In this document: piece by piece, positions 15,141 to 50,357 of the stretch
Layout: the number at the start of each line of letters is the position of its first letter
Position numbering within the stretch: the stretch's first letter is position 1
NCBI GenBank assembly: GCA_041665545.1
Contig: JBAYIQ010000006.1
Span: forward strand, 1 to 50,505
Source: Patescibacteria group bacterium
Lineage (GTDB): Bacteria > Patescibacteriota > Patescibacteriia > UBA1558 > GWA2-36-10
Direction: 5' to 3'
Length of the DNA stretch: 50,505 bases
Translations under genes and position numbers: made by a program
Notes under the pieces: model-generated
The model's database searches: none
Told to the model about the DNA's origin: nothing
The model's input: the letters and a program-made list of their open reading frames with translations, nothing else

Positions 15141-15400
15141 TTTAGTGGGCCTTGTTTCAGGAAGGGAGGTGTGTCATGAAGAAGACATTTAGTTTGATTT
15201 GGGATCAGGTCAAGCAGTATCGTCGGGAAAGGCGGTATTTTGAGCACTATCTTGACAACATCATCAGAATCATGATGGGCATTAAACCCATCGACTATCG
15301 AGTCATCTCTCACCAGAACAGGCTTGTTCATTCCTCTTGGAGCAGTGATCGGCTGTTCTAGAAAGGAGGCCTCCACGGGGATTCCATAGAATCCCCTACG
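15141..15400 (+). other. GC-enriched mini-cassette A
   Basis: Composition shift right after the ruvB stop. SD GGGAGG lies 6 nt before the ATG at 15176. Hairpin GGGGATTC-cata-GAATCCCC at 15377-15396. Confidence 0.45.
15176..15361 (+). CDS. cassette A small ORF (61 aa), no recognised family
   Basis: MKKTFSLIWDQVKQYRRERRYFEHY... Preferred over the antisense 85-aa ORF because of its SD and spacing. Confidence 0.4.
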   Translation: MKKTFSLIWDQVKQYRRERRYFEHYLDNIIRIMMGIKPIDYRVISHQNRLVHSSWSSDRLF

Positions 15401-15452
15401 CTAAAAGTATTTTGTCATATTAATAATAAATGGATAAAATTATTTTAAAAGT

Positions 15453-15836
15453 ATGAATGAAGGCAGATTTATAAAAAATGAAAATCAGGAGCCAATCCTG
15501 ACATTCGAAGAATTCAGTAGGCCATGGCGATATGGCATACCCACACATAACAATTTCTTTAGGATATTTTCCGGACAGTGGGACACTCCCGCCGGGAGCG
15601 AGGACGTCAGTCAGGAGTTATTGGAAATGAAATTAAGAGATCCTAGATATATAAGCTACCAGAGATTTAGAGCAGAAAACTCACAACTAGATGCTGAATT
15701 GAGGCAGTTGGTGTCAGACTTGGATCCGGCTGGTAATATCAAGGTTTTTGAACAATCACTTCTGTCCGAAAAATTATATGAGGCATATAAAATAATGAGG
15801 GGATATGGAGTCTCAGGCCGCGATCTATTCATGTAA
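15453..15836 (+). CDS. hypothetical protein (127 aa)
   Basis: Clean ORF. No domain recognised. Confidence 0.45.
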   Translation: MNEGRFIKNENQEPILTFEEFSRPWRYGIPTHNNFFRIFSGQWDTPAGSEDVSQELLEMKLRDPRYISYQRFRAENSQLDAELRQLVSDLDPAGNIKVFEQSLLSEKLYEAYKIMRGYGVSGRDLFM

Positions 15837-15853
15837 TAAAATTATTTAAAAAT

Positions 15854-16489
15854 ATGGAGGATAAATTAATAGACGTTGGATTTTTGTACCCAGTTATTGA
15901 TGGTCAGATTTATGTAGGGCAAAGAGGCACAGAACCGCATCAAGGTTTTTATGGACCCATCGGCGGTAAATCGGAAAGTTACAATCCAAATGATCGGCCT
16001 TATATCAAGGAATATCCTGCCAAACCTCATATACCATATTCTGACATAATGGCTAAAGCCAGAGATAAAGAGTTTGGTCACTCTAGTGCTATCAGGGAAT
16101 TTTATGAAGAGGTTTTTCAAATTAAAACAGTACCATGGGATGAGGTGTCTAATATTTTTAAAATTGGAGCAATTACCGACACTTTTAATGATAAGATAAC
16201 TAATTGCCAATTTTATTTAGCTATGATTGATAGGAATAGTTTTGATTTGTCGCCTCGTGAATTAACAAATATTAGACCATTAGAAGAAATAAAAGTGGAA
16301 GAGTTGTATCCTTTGGCCATGGCCTCGTTGTTTGGATTAAAAAAAGTTTTTGCTAAAGGTGTAGTTAAAAAATTAGAGCCATACGCCTCATTAAATATTA
16401 TTAGCCAAATTCCAGACTTTGATAATAAGGGGATCAAACAGATTATGAAAAATAAAAACACATCAATTGAGGATTTAATGGTTTTGTAA
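15854..16489 (+). CDS. Nudix-like hydrolase (degenerate, split Nudix box)
   Basis: GPIGGKSES ... AIREFYEEVFQ resembles GX5EX7REUXEEXGU, but with a long insertion. Tentative. Confidence 0.35.
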   Translation: MEDKLIDVGFLYPVIDGQIYVGQRGTEPHQGFYGPIGGKSESYNPNDRPYIKEYPAKPHIPYSDIMAKARDKEFGHSSAIREFYEEVFQIKTVPWDEVSNIFKIGAITDTFNDKITNCQFYLAMIDRNSFDLSPRELTNIRPLEEIKVEELYPLAMASLFGLKKVFAKGVVKKLEPYASLNIISQIPDFDNKGIKQIMKNKNTSIEDLMVL

Positions 16490-16686
16490 AATTATTTTAA
16501 AAATATATTAAACACAGAATTAGTAATCGGCGGCAAGGACAGGTCATTACTAATTGATGCTTTATTTGAATTTGAAAATTAAATAAAAGAAATCAGGCCC
16601 CTCCCGAAGGAAAAGCCTGAAGCCGACGTGAGCCTAGACGGCCCACGGAGACGCTGGTAAGAGTGAAGTCGGGAGGCCGTGGCTGA

Positions 16687-16911
16687 CTACGGCTGGCTGA
16701 TCTGCACCGTGATGATGCCTTCCGAGTCAACATTTTGGATGTAGTCAATGTCGACCAAGAACTTGGCTACCAGAGGTTTCTTGCCCCACACCCCTGGTAT
16801 CTCGACCCCCGGCACTTCATCGGCCTGTAACCAGGCCTTGACCAGCTGGCCAGTCTTGAGCTTCAGAGTGTCACACCGATCGATGTAAATGGTCATGTAC
16901 GCTTGGGACAT
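16687..16911 (-). CDS. cassette D small ORF (74 aa), no recognised family
   Basis: Start trimmed to the ATG (complement of 16909-16911), 6 nt downstream of GAGGAGG. MSQAYMTIYIDRCDTLKLKTGQLV... Confidence 0.5.
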   Translation of the reverse strand: MSQAYMTIYIDRCDTLKLKTGQLVKAWLQADEVPGVEIPGVWGKKPLVAKFLVDIDYIQNVDSEGIITVQISQP

Positions 16912-16993
16912 GGAAAGCCTCCTCGGGAAACAACCCCTTTGGACGATTACCGGTCTTCTTACCAGAGGTGCTCGAAGAACTTTACGACATTTT

Positions 16994-17022
16994 ATCATAG
17001 CATATAAATAGAATATTGTCAA
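16994..17022 (-). promoter_or_regulatory. TTGACA-17-TATGAT promoter of cassette D
   Basis: TGTCAA at 17017-17022 and ATCATA at 16994-16999 on the plus strand. Confidence 0.6.
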
Positions 17023-49522: not shown

Positions 49523-49588
49523 GTCATTAATATAGCAGACATTAAATATTAAAAGCAATTTTTGATTTTTATCATTCATTACATCTTT

Positions 49589-49617
49589 TTGACAAAAGAT
49601 TTGTTATATATTAATAT
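49589..49617 (+). promoter_or_regulatory. TTGACA-17-TAATAT promoter of island X
   Basis: TTGACA at 49589-49594 and TAATAT at 49612-49617. Back to back with the uvrC start region. Confidence 0.55.
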
Positions 49618-49686
49618 GGTCAGTCGTGTTCGTAGCAAATAGCCACATTGTTTGCTTAGTTTGTTCATTAGCTAGGGGGTAAAATC

Positions 49687-49905
49687 ATGCCAATGTCAGT
49701 AAGGGACGCCGTCATCAAGCGGACAGCAGAAGCTTTGGAAATTCCCGAGAGCCGGGTGACCATGGAAACGGTCATTCCTGCGTGCTGTCTGCAATCCGTG
49801 ATGATGTATGTAGTGAGTGATACTCTCAAGGGGGCTTTTATCGATGATATCGGAGAAGGAAAGACAGTTCAGGCGGTGATCAATGGTTTTTTTGACACCC
49901 ATTGA
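49687..49905 (+). CDS. island X ORF 1 (72 aa), acyl-carrier-protein-like pattern without the phosphopantetheine Ser
   Basis: V...VIKRTAEALEIPESRVT.E......CCLQSVMMYVVSDTL...F......GKTVQAVINGF parallels ACP (..AE.LG.....V..E..[21 protein letters not shown]......TVQ.AID.I), but DSL is replaced by CCL. By-eye similarity only. Confidence 0.4.
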   Translation: MPMSVRDAVIKRTAEALEIPESRVTMETVIPACCLQSVMMYVVSDTLKGAFIDDIGEGKTVQAVINGFFDTH

Positions 49906-50070
49906 CATCCTTGACTTTGGTGGCCCAACAAACCCATCAAGCAGAAAATTCATCTGCGCTATTGGTGGGTTTTCTGTTTGTTTTTGATTTTTTAATTGTT
50001 TTGGGATAAGCTGATAAATAGACTTTGTTGTTTTGTTAGTCAAACTTGGAAATAGAACGGGGGTGTCTAA

Positions 50071-50307
50071 ATGGAGATCATTGATCCTAGCCAAGATGCG
50101 GAAAGACGGCAAGCAGCGCAGAGAATCACCCCGCAAGTTTGTCGTTGTGGCTGTCACATCGAAGATGAGGATGGCATCCCTCTGACCAAGCACGATGGGC
50201 CATGCTGTGAGACCTGCATTTGTGGTCTCAGCATCGTCATTGGTGGCTTGGACGAGCATCAGCGTCGCTGTTCTGTCTACCAGGCCAGCCAGAAAAAAAA
50301 GGGCTAG
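50071..50307 (+). CDS. island X ORF 2 (78 aa), Cys-rich (8 Cys: CRCGCH, CCETCIC)
   Basis: GGGGG lies 7 nt before the ATG. No family recognised. Confidence 0.4.
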   Translation: MEIIDPSQDAERRQAAQRITPQVCRCGCHIEDEDGIPLTKHDGPCCETCICGLSIVIGGLDEHQRRCSVYQASQKKKG

Positions 50308-50324
50308 CTTGTTCTTTTCGGCAC

Positions 50325-50357
50325 AACCCAGGTTCGCAGGGACCTGGGTTTTCTTTT
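50325..50357 (+). terminator. intrinsic terminator AACCCAGGT-N8-ACCTGGGTT plus T-run
   Basis: Stem arms at 50325-50333 and 50342-50350, followed by TTCTTTT. Confidence 0.75.

Follow-up and report, generated by a model that had tools for sequence, protein, structure and literature searches.

Minimal mobile elements of Neisseria (Saunders and Snyder 2002; Snyder et al. 2007) are the closest concept for a set of small-gene cassettes in a metagenome-assembled genome of a member of the Parcubacteria (Patescibacteria). They (definition in PMC3082526) are differing whole-gene cassettes, or none, between the same pair of conserved genes, without mobility genes, in a naturally transformable host group for which exchange via flank homology is proposed. 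The stretch analyzed here, called the window throughout, is the whole of positions 1 to 50,505 of contig JBAYIQ010000006.1 (Patescibacteria group bacterium, assembly GCA_041665545.1), and the cassettes occupy nine blocks in its intergenic spacers, labeled A, D, E, F, H, L, S, W, and X. The core genes are AT-rich and lack a Shine-Dalgarno (SD) sequence; the cassette genes are GC-rich and SD-led, with codon, amino acid, and stop codon usage of their own. Like minimal mobile elements, the cassettes lie between conserved flanking genes, a given site holds differing cassettes or none in different relatives, and natural competence has been shown in Patescibacteria (Saccharibacteria) (PMC10633639). 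Eight of the nine blocks have neither an integrase nor a transposase inside or beside them, and alleles are shuffled, yet repeats of 21 nt at S and 16 nt at F suggest insertions. Unlike minimal mobile elements, the cassettes belong to a single class in composition and translation, being rich in GC and preceded by an SD where the remaining genome is AT-rich and lacks it. Many consist of one tiny open reading frame (ORF) between a promoter and a terminator of its own, direct repeats flank two of the cassettes, and certain sites have been occupied over deep time by one fast-evolving family (that of E and H), not by unrelated genes.

Phage morons resemble the cassettes in being single accessory ORFs of distinct composition with their own promoter and terminator, placed between conserved genes. 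Morons are usually described as differing from phage composition, not as a conserved host-wide class. The blocks have no prophage context, their flanks being ruvB, queH, glyA, rlmH, trpS, rnj, secG, and uvrC, and no viral homologs were found in PHROG or, for H, W3, and L, in viral contigs. Membership among the morons was considered and rejected: an own promoter and terminator were found by consensus match, but a location in a prophage was not. Integron cassettes are likewise small, mostly orphan ORFs exchangeable as cassettes, with content that varies among relatives. They are typically promoterless, and the cassettes here are scattered over many sites, not arrayed, each with its own promoter (cassette A excepted, see below). 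An integron origin was rejected too, as the repeat search gave no attC-like common site and neither the window nor the next 9 kb encodes an integrase.

Genomes poor in SD sequences, such as those of Bacteroidetes and part of the Parcubacteria, share with this one an SD-less core and a small minority of genes with a strong SD, and the keeping of a strong SD by a minority of genes implies special translational treatment. In Bacteroidetes the SD-bearing exception is the conserved housekeeping gene rpsU, whereas here the exceptions are hypervariable, lineage-specific, GC-rich accessory genes. Literature searches on GC-rich intergenic cassettes or SD use in Parcubacteria returned only a report of anti-SD loss. 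The compositional and translational split between core and cassettes is a novel feature, of which we found no description in the searchable literature.

Composition and Shine-Dalgarno use of the cassettes

The window has 38.9% GC overall. The nine blocks (A, 15141-15400; D, 16594-17085; E, 28917-29418; F, 29973-30221; H, 31586-32154; L, 35773-36173; S, 41620-41973; W, 46200-47771; X, 49620-50357) sum to 5,137 nt and have 49.5% GC vs 37.7% elsewhere. They make up 10.2% of the window, in agreement with the tenth estimated in an initial annotation made from the sequence alone, whose hand counts of G+C were all exact on recount (36/60, 40/60, 10/60, 12/60, and 29/60). The GC content of D, E, H, and W is reached by no non-block window of equal length; at most 1% of such windows exceed F and X, and 5-6% exceed A and L, while S (17%) is no outlier. 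Intergenic stretches longer than 300 nt are, two exceptions aside, these nine blocks. The units within them, with predicted promoters and terminators, are listed here.

Cassette A, 15164-15361, plus strand: SD GGGAGGT at 15164-15170; ORF of 61 amino acids at 15176-15361; no promoter of its own found.
Cassette D, 16593-17022, minus strand: promoter TTGACA-17-TATGAT at 17022-16994; leader; SD GAGGAGG; ORF of 74 amino acids at 16911-16687; terminator hairpin at 16620-16593.
Cassette E, 28920-29408, minus strand: promoter TTGACA-16-TATAAT at 29408-29381; leader; SD AAGGAGG; ORF of 111 amino acids at 29297-28962; GC hairpin terminator at 28950-28920.
Cassette F, 29914-30212, plus strand: promoter TTGACA-17-TAATAT at 29914-29942; SD AAAGGAGGTG; arginine-rich ORF of 52 amino acids at 30007-30165; terminator hairpin at 30188-30212.
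Cassette H, 31595-32154, minus strand: promoter TTGACA-16-TATAAT at 32154-32127; leader; SD GGGGAGGTGA; ORF of 148 amino acids with a GTG start, 32076-31630; terminator hairpin at 31623-31595.
Cassette L, 35798-36175, plus strand, between HAD and SET genes: promoter TTGACA-17-TAAAAT at 35798-35826; SD-like GGGGGT; ORF of 93 amino acids at 35872-36153; terminator at 36152-36175.
Cassette S, 41599-41994, minus strand: perfect 21-nt direct repeat AATCAATGGCCTGGTCAATTT at 41599-41619 and 41974-41994 around a 375-bp unit; promoter TTGACC-16-TAAAAT at 41991-41964, using the duplicated -35 box of the trpS promoter; SD AAGGAG; ORF of 68 amino acids at 41896-41690; terminator at 41664-41642.
Cassette W, forward operon, 46177-46667, plus strand: promoter TTGACT-18-TAGTAT at 46177-46206; leader; SD GGAGGTGA.
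W1, 46273-46431, plus strand: cysteine-rich ORF of 52 amino acids.
W2, 46464-46595 (or from 46434), plus strand: arginine-rich peptide; SD GGAGG; terminator at 46634-46667.
Cassette W3, 46682-47602, minus strand: SD TAGGAGGT; ORF of 292 amino acids at 47602-46724; terminator at 46708-46682.
Cassette X, 49589-50350, plus strand: promoter TTGACA-17-TAATAT at 49589-49617; terminator at 50325-50350.
X1, 49687-49905, plus strand: ORF of 72 amino acids, GGGGGT upstream.
X2, 50071-50307, plus strand: cysteine-rich ORF of 78 amino acids, GGGGGT upstream.

The H and W2 ORFs of the initial annotation are retained with other starts: that of H is corrected to the GTG at 32076 behind GGGGAGGTGA, and the likeliest start of W2 moves to 46464 behind GGAGG, which gives 43 amino acids.

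GC at third codon positions (GC3) reaches 0.75 in D, 0.70 in H, 0.67 in E, and 0.61 in A, against a mean of 0.36 and a maximum of 0.47 in host genes. In these four ORFs GC3 exceeds GC1, which exceeds GC2, a coding signature; F and W2 show no GC3 excess. Codon-usage scores of the cassette ORFs lie outside the host range except for S, with L at the lower edge of that range and A at -0.17. Isoleucine is encoded by ATC in 70% of cases in cassettes and 22% in host genes, and by ATA in 3% vs 28%; CTG and CTC together make up 53% of leucine codons in cassettes and 16% in host genes. Arginine is raised (9.4% vs 3.6%) and lysine lowered (4.9% vs 9.5%), cysteine, histidine, and tryptophan are raised as well, and TAA accounts for 25% of cassette stops and 81% of host stops. 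Computed GC, GC3, and codon use, a check that the initial annotation had proposed, set the cassettes apart from the host genes, with S the exception in GC and codon score and F and W2 in GC3.

A blind scan of both strands for GGAGG, AGGAG, GAGGT, or GGGGGT, followed after 4-10 nt by a start codon and an ORF of at least 30 amino acids, recovered all 12 cassette ORFs in intergenic DNA and one 31-amino-acid ORF inside block W. It recovered none of the 42 host gene starts, the few other matches being internal and attributable to chance. The SD stands 4-9 nt ahead of the start in every cassette ORF. Even when counted conservatively (11/12 cassette ORFs vs 0/42 host genes) the difference is highly significant (Fisher p = 1e-10), and the initial claim of an SD before all 12 small ORFs is strengthened by this comparison with the host starts.

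Upstream of the 42 host genes the DNA is AT-rich, often with a -10-like box just 12-20 nt before the ATG, and a recurring AAAATTATTT(T)AAAA motif precedes several of them (e.g., 15435-15454, 15836-15853, 16487-16506, and 17093-17115). A motif or -10-like box so near the ATG suggests that host mRNAs may have very short leaders or be leaderless. Copies of the AAAATTATTT(T)AAAA motif stand on both sides of block D and could be mistaken for a target-site duplication.

Scored against the consensus, the promoters of E and H alone reach 12/12 in the 15-33 kb interval; those of D and L reach 11/12 and those of F, S, W1, and X1 9-10/12. The strongest terminator hairpins of the window sit at cassette ends. 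As sequence matches, then, the near-consensus promoters and GC-hairpin terminators described initially are borne out, and they are the strongest in the window. The host promoters of arsR, trpS, and secG are likewise near consensus, so that the promoter is not the distinguishing mark of the cassettes. A CU-rich 5' leader that would sequester the SD of H-type genes was considered and rejected, since the alignment fold has five pairs, no covariation, and -2.5 kcal/mol. The anti-SD motif of 16S rRNA has been found in only ~48% of Parcubacteria (Tsurumaki et al. 2022, PMC9297842). Strict retention of AAGGAGG before the fast-diverging E and H genes argues that the SD is functional here.

Cassette sites in related genomes

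Relatives were collected with an Elp3 query, one genome per species, and fall into loci with 83-91% Elp3 identity (L004-L007) and loci with 68-72% (L008-L013); exact-protein look-ups added L022-L025, L106-L112, and L115. None of these loci spans ruvB-queH, where A and D lie, and none serves for a comparison of X1 and X2. A metagenome scan with RNase J gave distant relatives only (48-81% identity), which were used for statistics on generality and not for the comparison of empty sites.

The junctions of the window are identical in JGI 3300037810, NCBI GCA_041662385.1 (JBAZSO010000006.1), ENA ERZ27249449 (where the contig with the window sequence is 169 kb), and Logan SRR6484324 and SRR18595301. 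These assemblies stem from differing samples and assemblers, and the same cassette layout is present in related species from other studies. Their agreement shows that the composition junctions are not chimeras, the concern for which a check had initially been advised.

The flanking pairs glyA-rlmH, rlmH-arsR, sdpI-elp3, SET-HAD, trpS-rnj, and secG-uvrC are conserved, and the flanking host proteins are ~80-99% identical in L004, L007, L110, L112, and L023. A member of the E/H family lies directly downstream of elp3 in every locus examined (L004-L010, L012, L106, and L108) and, ancestrally, upstream of glyA. These members have a common layout of TTGACA-N16/17-TATAAT, a leader of ~50 nt, AAGGAGGTGA, and a GC hairpin. 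Their GC3 is 0.54-0.72 in genomes of 36-44% GC, except in L008, where it is 0.36 vs ~0.2 in the neighboring genes. W3 and W2 are kept next to secG in relatives; in L022 their other neighbor is uvrC. W2 homologs are present in L022, L023, and L007, and a 90-nt GC-rich core of W2 is ~88% conserved in DNA among the window (46497-46586), L007 (517-606), and L023 (1637-1726). This core encodes the arginine-rich peptide motif FSRHRQRQRRRA, and its surroundings are all rearranged. The leader, SD, and ATG of W are common to the window, L007, and L023, and the ORF modules differ.

Other sites vary in occupancy. The F site is empty in L005, L006, L110, and L112. An imperfect 16-nt direct repeat of the empty-site sequence, AAAGATTATCATTATT and TAAGAGTATTTTTAGT, brackets F in the window. 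The F homolog in L004 is 35-37% identical with conserved ends. In F, as in W, the expression signals (promoter, leader, SD, start codon, and terminator) have been kept, and the differences lie in the body of the ORF or in its modules. Nothing occupies the L site in L005 and L006, whose HAD and SET genes overlap directly, and in L004 the site holds an unrelated AT-rich gene of 156 amino acids. S is missing in L007, where the 21-nt repeat is single-copy; this repeat duplicates the -35 part of the trpS promoter, so that S and trpS each keep a promoter. L004 has an extra cassette of the same design in the folD spacer (GC 0.60, GC3 0.83), which is empty in the window, and the X site in L022 is occupied by another SD-led small ORF. 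In addition to presence and absence there are deeply diverged alleles. H is 78% identical to the L004 copy (dN/dS, the ratio of nonsynonymous to synonymous substitution rates, 0.30) and 29.5% to the L112 copy (dS 1.5), whereas E is 80% identical to the L112 copy (dN/dS 0.28) and 31-33% to the L004 allele (dS 1.9); across relatives the alleles of E and H are as low as 26-39% identical.

These spacers show that whole cassettes or deeply diverged alleles have been gained, lost, and exchanged among related genomes. Relative to those genomes F, L, and S are true insertions or deletions, as the initial annotation had supposed for all the blocks. E, H, and W are ancestral at their sites, the very pattern that it had named as speaking against insertion.

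A gene of 297 amino acids of the Mem_trans (auxin-efflux) type, at 34393-35286 between a methyltransferase gene and the SET gene, is absent in L110 and L112 (8776-9833). Together with the 156-amino-acid gene in L004, the absence of this gene indicates that ordinary AT-rich genes also come and go at spacers.

No attC-like or MITE (miniature inverted-repeat transposable element)-like repeat or end motif common to the cassettes was found by repeat and inverted-repeat search. The one repeat family of the window has units of ~57 nt with a double hairpin, CGTCATCCCGCACTTGTTGCGGGATCTAGCAAGATTCCTGCCTACGCAGGAATGACA, which resemble REP (repetitive extragenic palindromic) or MITE sequences, are 91-96% identical, lie in spacers 3' of genes, and are unrelated to the cassettes. 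Full units are at 17668-17724, 25605-25661, and 39566-39622 and half units at 27545-27573 and 9600-9628; variant copies are at 26498-26538, in the folD spacer where L004 has its extra cassette, and at 31522-31562, at the edge of block H.

Selection and GC content of the cassettes

The dN/dS values of E (0.28), H (0.30), L (0.24, with 83% identity to L112), and W3 (0.36 and 0.28) are looser than those of host genes (0.01-0.16), yet clearly below 1, and the peptide homologs of F and W2, 35-59% identical, give 0.33-0.41. Under the dN/dS test that had been suggested, E, H, L, and W3 evolve as coding genes. The GC3-biased sequence of E, read initially as real coding DNA, stands as such; its derivation from a higher-GC source does not stand as a general explanation. 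S differs from its L004 counterpart at 14 positions spread evenly over the three codon positions (dN/dS 0.89), with host-like codon use, and the case for its coding is weak, as the comparison with L004 does not demonstrate it.

Cassette dS is consistently about half that of the flanking genes, with ranges of 0.19-0.45 vs 0.39-0.89 within genome pairs. Taken singly, it is 0.37 in E, 0.45 in H, and 0.44 in L vs ~0.5-1.0 in the flanks, and in W3 it is 0.19 vs 0.39-0.48 in one pair and 0.79 vs 2.0 in a second. This is opposite to the expectation from AT-biased mutation at GC-rich neutral sites. Changes in W3, H, and E polarized with an outgroup comprise 52 AT→GC and 61 GC→AT, a GC→AT fraction of 0.54 vs 0.64 expected from the host bias (p = 0.017); at third positions the fraction is 0.57 vs 0.73 expected (p = 0.014). 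Polarized changes in host genes are balanced (274 vs 261). The polarized counts, small and with distant outgroups, are only suggestive, though in agreement with the deep persistence of the GC-rich state throughout the E/H family, and they weakly indicate that cassette GC is maintained rather than decaying.

Recombining bacterial genes tend toward higher GC3 (Lassalle et al. 2015, PMC4450053). The pattern here resembles GC-biased gene conversion in that exchange of alleles is seen at the loci with high GC3, where changes toward GC and toward AT are about equally frequent although the genome is AT-biased. It differs in that shifts in SD and amino acids accompany the GC3 contrast. The contrast itself, 0.5-0.75 vs 0.36 and up to 0.9 in relatives, appears to lie above the effect reportedly seen by Lassalle et al. 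in 2015. By analogy, cassette GC may plausibly be maintained through such a tie of GC3 to recombination, with synonymous-site selection, e.g., for mRNA stability, as an alternative. GC-richness would then be held by selection at synonymous sites or by GC-biased gene conversion.

Cassette proteins and the E/H family

E and H are paralogs with the common motifs HW... and PI.E.dG.IPQd..F..L, contrary to the initial description of all ORFs as mutually unrelated. E is a paralog without the helix-turn-helix (HTH) that H adds, and some relatives have two N-domains. All-vs-all BLASTP of the cassette proteins matched F with the L004 F homolog, W2 with the L022 and L023 homologs, and an L007 module with an L023 module, and no others. 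The E/H family comprises 53 clusters at 50% identity, in this Parcubacteria lineage only (HMMER, 1.84 billion representative proteins). The AlphaFold model of H (predicted local distance difference test, pLDDT, 85.8) has a four-helix N-domain, for which there was no structural match, and a C-terminal winged HTH of the MerR/excisionase type. Residues ~94-143 superpose on RacA, BldC, the mycobacteriophage Pukovnik Xis, and the N-terminal domain of TniQ with a root-mean-square deviation of 1.1-2.9 Å and a probability of ~1.0; E-values are weak (0.01-0.4) because the domain is short. By sequence H falls below the family cut-offs (HTH_17, 20.8 bits vs 27; TIGR01764, 18.3 vs 28.8), and some H homologs carry a precomputed PF12728 match. 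The excisionase-type HTH proposed initially for H therefore finds support in the fold and misses the Pfam and TIGR01764 sequence cut-offs. From their content E and H would form a winged-HTH DNA-binding family.

Searches with Pfam, PHROGs, NCBIfam, and PADLOC gave only the sub-threshold HTH of H, in agreement with the early impression that most cassette ORFs belong to no recognizable family. The best PHROG match was not significant (E 0.028), PADLOC defense models gave chance-level matches only (E at least 0.009), and PDB sequence searches with X1, D, L, and the E/H profile gave nothing. An acyl carrier protein-like pattern had been seen in X, but there is no DSL motif, nothing in Pfam or NCBIfam at E up to 1, and, for X1, nothing among PDB sequences at E up to 5. 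No homolog of the cassette proteins was found outside the lineage in protein searches. Viral contigs held no relatives of H, W3, or L, the E/H alignment being too divergent for such a scan.

The D protein is a singleton among 5.8 billion proteins. W3 has three homologs in the same collection, all beside secG or uvrC in close relatives; it has an N-terminal CxxC motif and two predicted transmembrane helices (residues 31-74), and its AlphaFold model from three sequences was unusable (pLDDT 40). Judged by content, F and W2 would be arginine-rich peptides, W3 a two-pass membrane protein, and W1 and X2 cysteine-rich mini-proteins. X1 and X2 are both called as genes in public assemblies, whereas the A ORF is uncalled by gene callers and missing from the protein collection. 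The region of block A, 15123-15410 and 3' of ruvB, folds into a closed multi-branch structure of -101 kcal/mol with z-scores of -4.1 and -5.5 (the latter against dinucleotide shuffles), and may hold an unrecognized structured RNA overlapping, or in place of, the 61-amino-acid ORF. The whole window has no Rfam match at gathering thresholds and only chance-level ones at E up to 5, of which Phe/Thr leader and ST7-AS2 overlap blocks S and W; ARAGORN found no tRNA or tmRNA genes in it.

The same gene class in other Patescibacteria

L009, of 36% GC and with an Elp3 that is 70% identical, has AT-rich host genes throughout, none of them with an SD. Against these stand four GC-rich genes behind an SD, which encode a member of the E/H family, a small membrane protein, and, in tandem, two type IV pilins. 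The pilins (17480-18410, Pfam N_methyl), with GC3 of 0.76-0.9 and identical SD CACAGGAGGAAAAGGAC, are the most extreme members of the class. In L010 the class also has a response-regulator receiver gene. Across 60 Patescibacteria loci an SD precedes 17 of the 41 ORFs that lie more than 10 points above locus GC and 107 of the 1,070 others (odds ratio 6.4, p = 3e-7). The GroEL gene lacks an SD in five other Patescibacteria loci, and its GC3 there is genome-like, which makes high expression alone an unlikely cause of the two marks.

Other features of the window

The gene of an IS1595-family DDE transposase (221 amino acids) straddles the right end of the window, starting ~240 nt past the X2 stop; the region corresponds to L115 10744-11744 (ENA contig ERZ27249449 k141_1076410). 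On its 3' side are a 95-amino-acid HTH_17 protein and then an ECF (extracytoplasmic function)-type sigma factor and a protein of 1,234 amino acids. The IS1595 and HTH_17 genes have host-like GC and no SD. The longest ORF of secG (191 amino acids, 45877-46452) extends into block W on the strand opposite W1; its homologs show the real SecG to be only ~72-98 amino acids long and to end near 46173, and the public calls of 137-185 amino acids are probably over-extended. Two tandem paralogous genes of 448 amino acids (19010-20356 and 20365-21711) have 28-30% GC and internal repeats of 72-84% identity in common.

Discussion

The reading toward which we lean is that the cassettes are a native, recombining, lineage-wide class of SD-dependent, GC-rich small accessory genes, akin to minimal mobile elements. 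As predicted from their promoters and terminators, they are autonomous expression units, and as a gene class they are both distinct and native to this Parcubacteria family. The design of a unit would be a near-consensus sigma-70 promoter, a leader of 40-75 nt, a canonical SD, a small ORF, and an intrinsic terminator. Such units would occupy the spacers between conserved core genes and turn over there by gain, loss, and allele replacement. DNA uptake followed by homologous recombination in the conserved flanks would be the likely route of exchange, and GC would be upheld at the recombining loci by biased conversion or by synonymous selection. The presence of pilins within the set in relatives indicates that it probably holds genes for host attachment, regulation, or conflict, and the products as a whole point to surface, regulatory, or conflict functions under diversifying pressure.

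Several observations weigh against a class of this kind. Homologous recombination would be deduced solely from allele shuffling and conserved flanks, and the direct repeats at S and F fit insertion, site-specific or by micro-homology, better than flank-mediated replacement, indicating that insertion brought in at least some of the cassettes. For D, a singleton, and for A, X1, and X2, recent import may be the true origin. S lacks a coding signature and has host-like codon use, and block A folds like a structured RNA. The polarized counts are small and their outgroups distant, the lower dS could reflect cassette exchange after the host lineages split, and the cause of the GC-richness is inferred, not proven.

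Independent and fairly recent imports, moron-like or derived from mobile elements, from a higher-GC, SD-using donor whose composition has not ameliorated, would account for composition, codons, stops, and SD like those of an SD-using genome of ~55% GC, as well as for the insertion of F, L, and S relative to some relatives, the direct repeats that flank S and F, the singleton D, the IS1595 transposase next to X, and the H domain fold, which is common in phages. Such an origin is nevertheless unlikely, because E/H and W2/W3 have kept their sites through deep divergence and occur nowhere outside the lineage, viral contigs held no relatives of H, W3, or L, there is no decay of GC, and dS lies below, not above, that of host genes. 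The S promoter, moreover, is a duplicated host -35 box and not imported DNA, and the IS1595 and HTH_17 genes next to X are host-like in composition and have no SD. Of the two interpretations in the initial annotation, an unnamed cassette-type accessory system comes close to the data, and independent high-GC acquisition as a general account does not. An assembly or binning artefact, with short pieces of a GC-richer organism spliced into spacers, would explain the abrupt composition shifts and nothing more; with the same junctions in JGI, NCBI, ENA, and Logan assemblies and the same architecture in related species, its probability is negligible.

Less probable than recent import, in our judgment, is that the cassettes are ordinary native genes, very highly expressed and not mobile, whose signals and G/C-ending codons come from selection for expression, translation efficiency, or mRNA stability. 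The best promoters and terminators of the window belong to them, ATC for isoleucine and other C-ending codons are favored, type IV pilins, usually abundant proteins, belong to the class in L009, the SD kept across the fast-evolving E/H family argues for its function, and dS is reduced. But G-ending codons and the shift from lysine to arginine are raised too, as in a general GC shift and not in tRNA matching, GroEL in the five other loci is SD-less with genome-like GC3, and host promoters are near consensus as well; presence/absence polymorphism, allele swapping, and flanking repeats are left unexplained. That the blocks are structured non-coding RNAs, with ORFs as by-products of a low stop-codon content, is very unlikely, even though GC-rich spacers in AT-rich genomes are usually structured RNAs. 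Block A, with its z-scores of -4.1 and -5.5 and its uncalled ORF, the modest z-scores of D (-2.6) and E (-2.2), the evolution of S without codon periodicity, and the missing GC3 excess in F and W2 would fit such RNAs. Against them, most blocks fold like shuffles (z -1.4 to +0.2), and those other than A do not surpass fragments of host coding sequence; searches for Rfam families up to an E of 5 and for tRNAs gave nothing above chance level, and conserved structure is lacking in the H leader. The dN/dS of 0.24-0.45 in E, H, L, W3, F, and W2, which marks conservation of the proteins, the confident model of H, the order GC3 > GC1 > GC2 in A, D, E, and H, and an SD 4-9 nt ahead of every ORF likewise speak for proteins.

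Under the native, recombining class that we favor, the accessory genes of one Parcubacteria family, which turn over fast, can be recognized by a simple sequence rule: GC-rich codons behind an SD where the rest of the genome is AT-rich and has no SD. A large part of bacterial diversity lies in the Patescibacteria (candidate phyla radiation), most of whose lineage-specific small genes are unannotated 'dark matter'. The cassettes offer a test case for the upkeep of GC against AT-biased mutation in bacteria, by biased gene conversion or selection, and for the use of SD-dependent initiation where core genes have given the SD up. They also call for caution over the equation of odd composition with recent horizontal transfer, as E and H, the GC-richest cassettes with relatives, are ancient residents of their sites. 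A further reading, which we put forward tentatively, is that this very small genome has two compartments, an SD-less AT core and an SD-dependent, hypervariable accessory set of pilins, DNA-binding proteins, basic peptides, and small membrane proteins, exchanged as cassettes and kept GC-rich by an active force, GC-biased conversion or synonymous selection for example. If true, SD use would set genes for conflict or host interaction apart as translated under a control of their own, and this would be especially striking should the lineage belong to the Parcubacteria reported to be without the 16S anti-SD motif.

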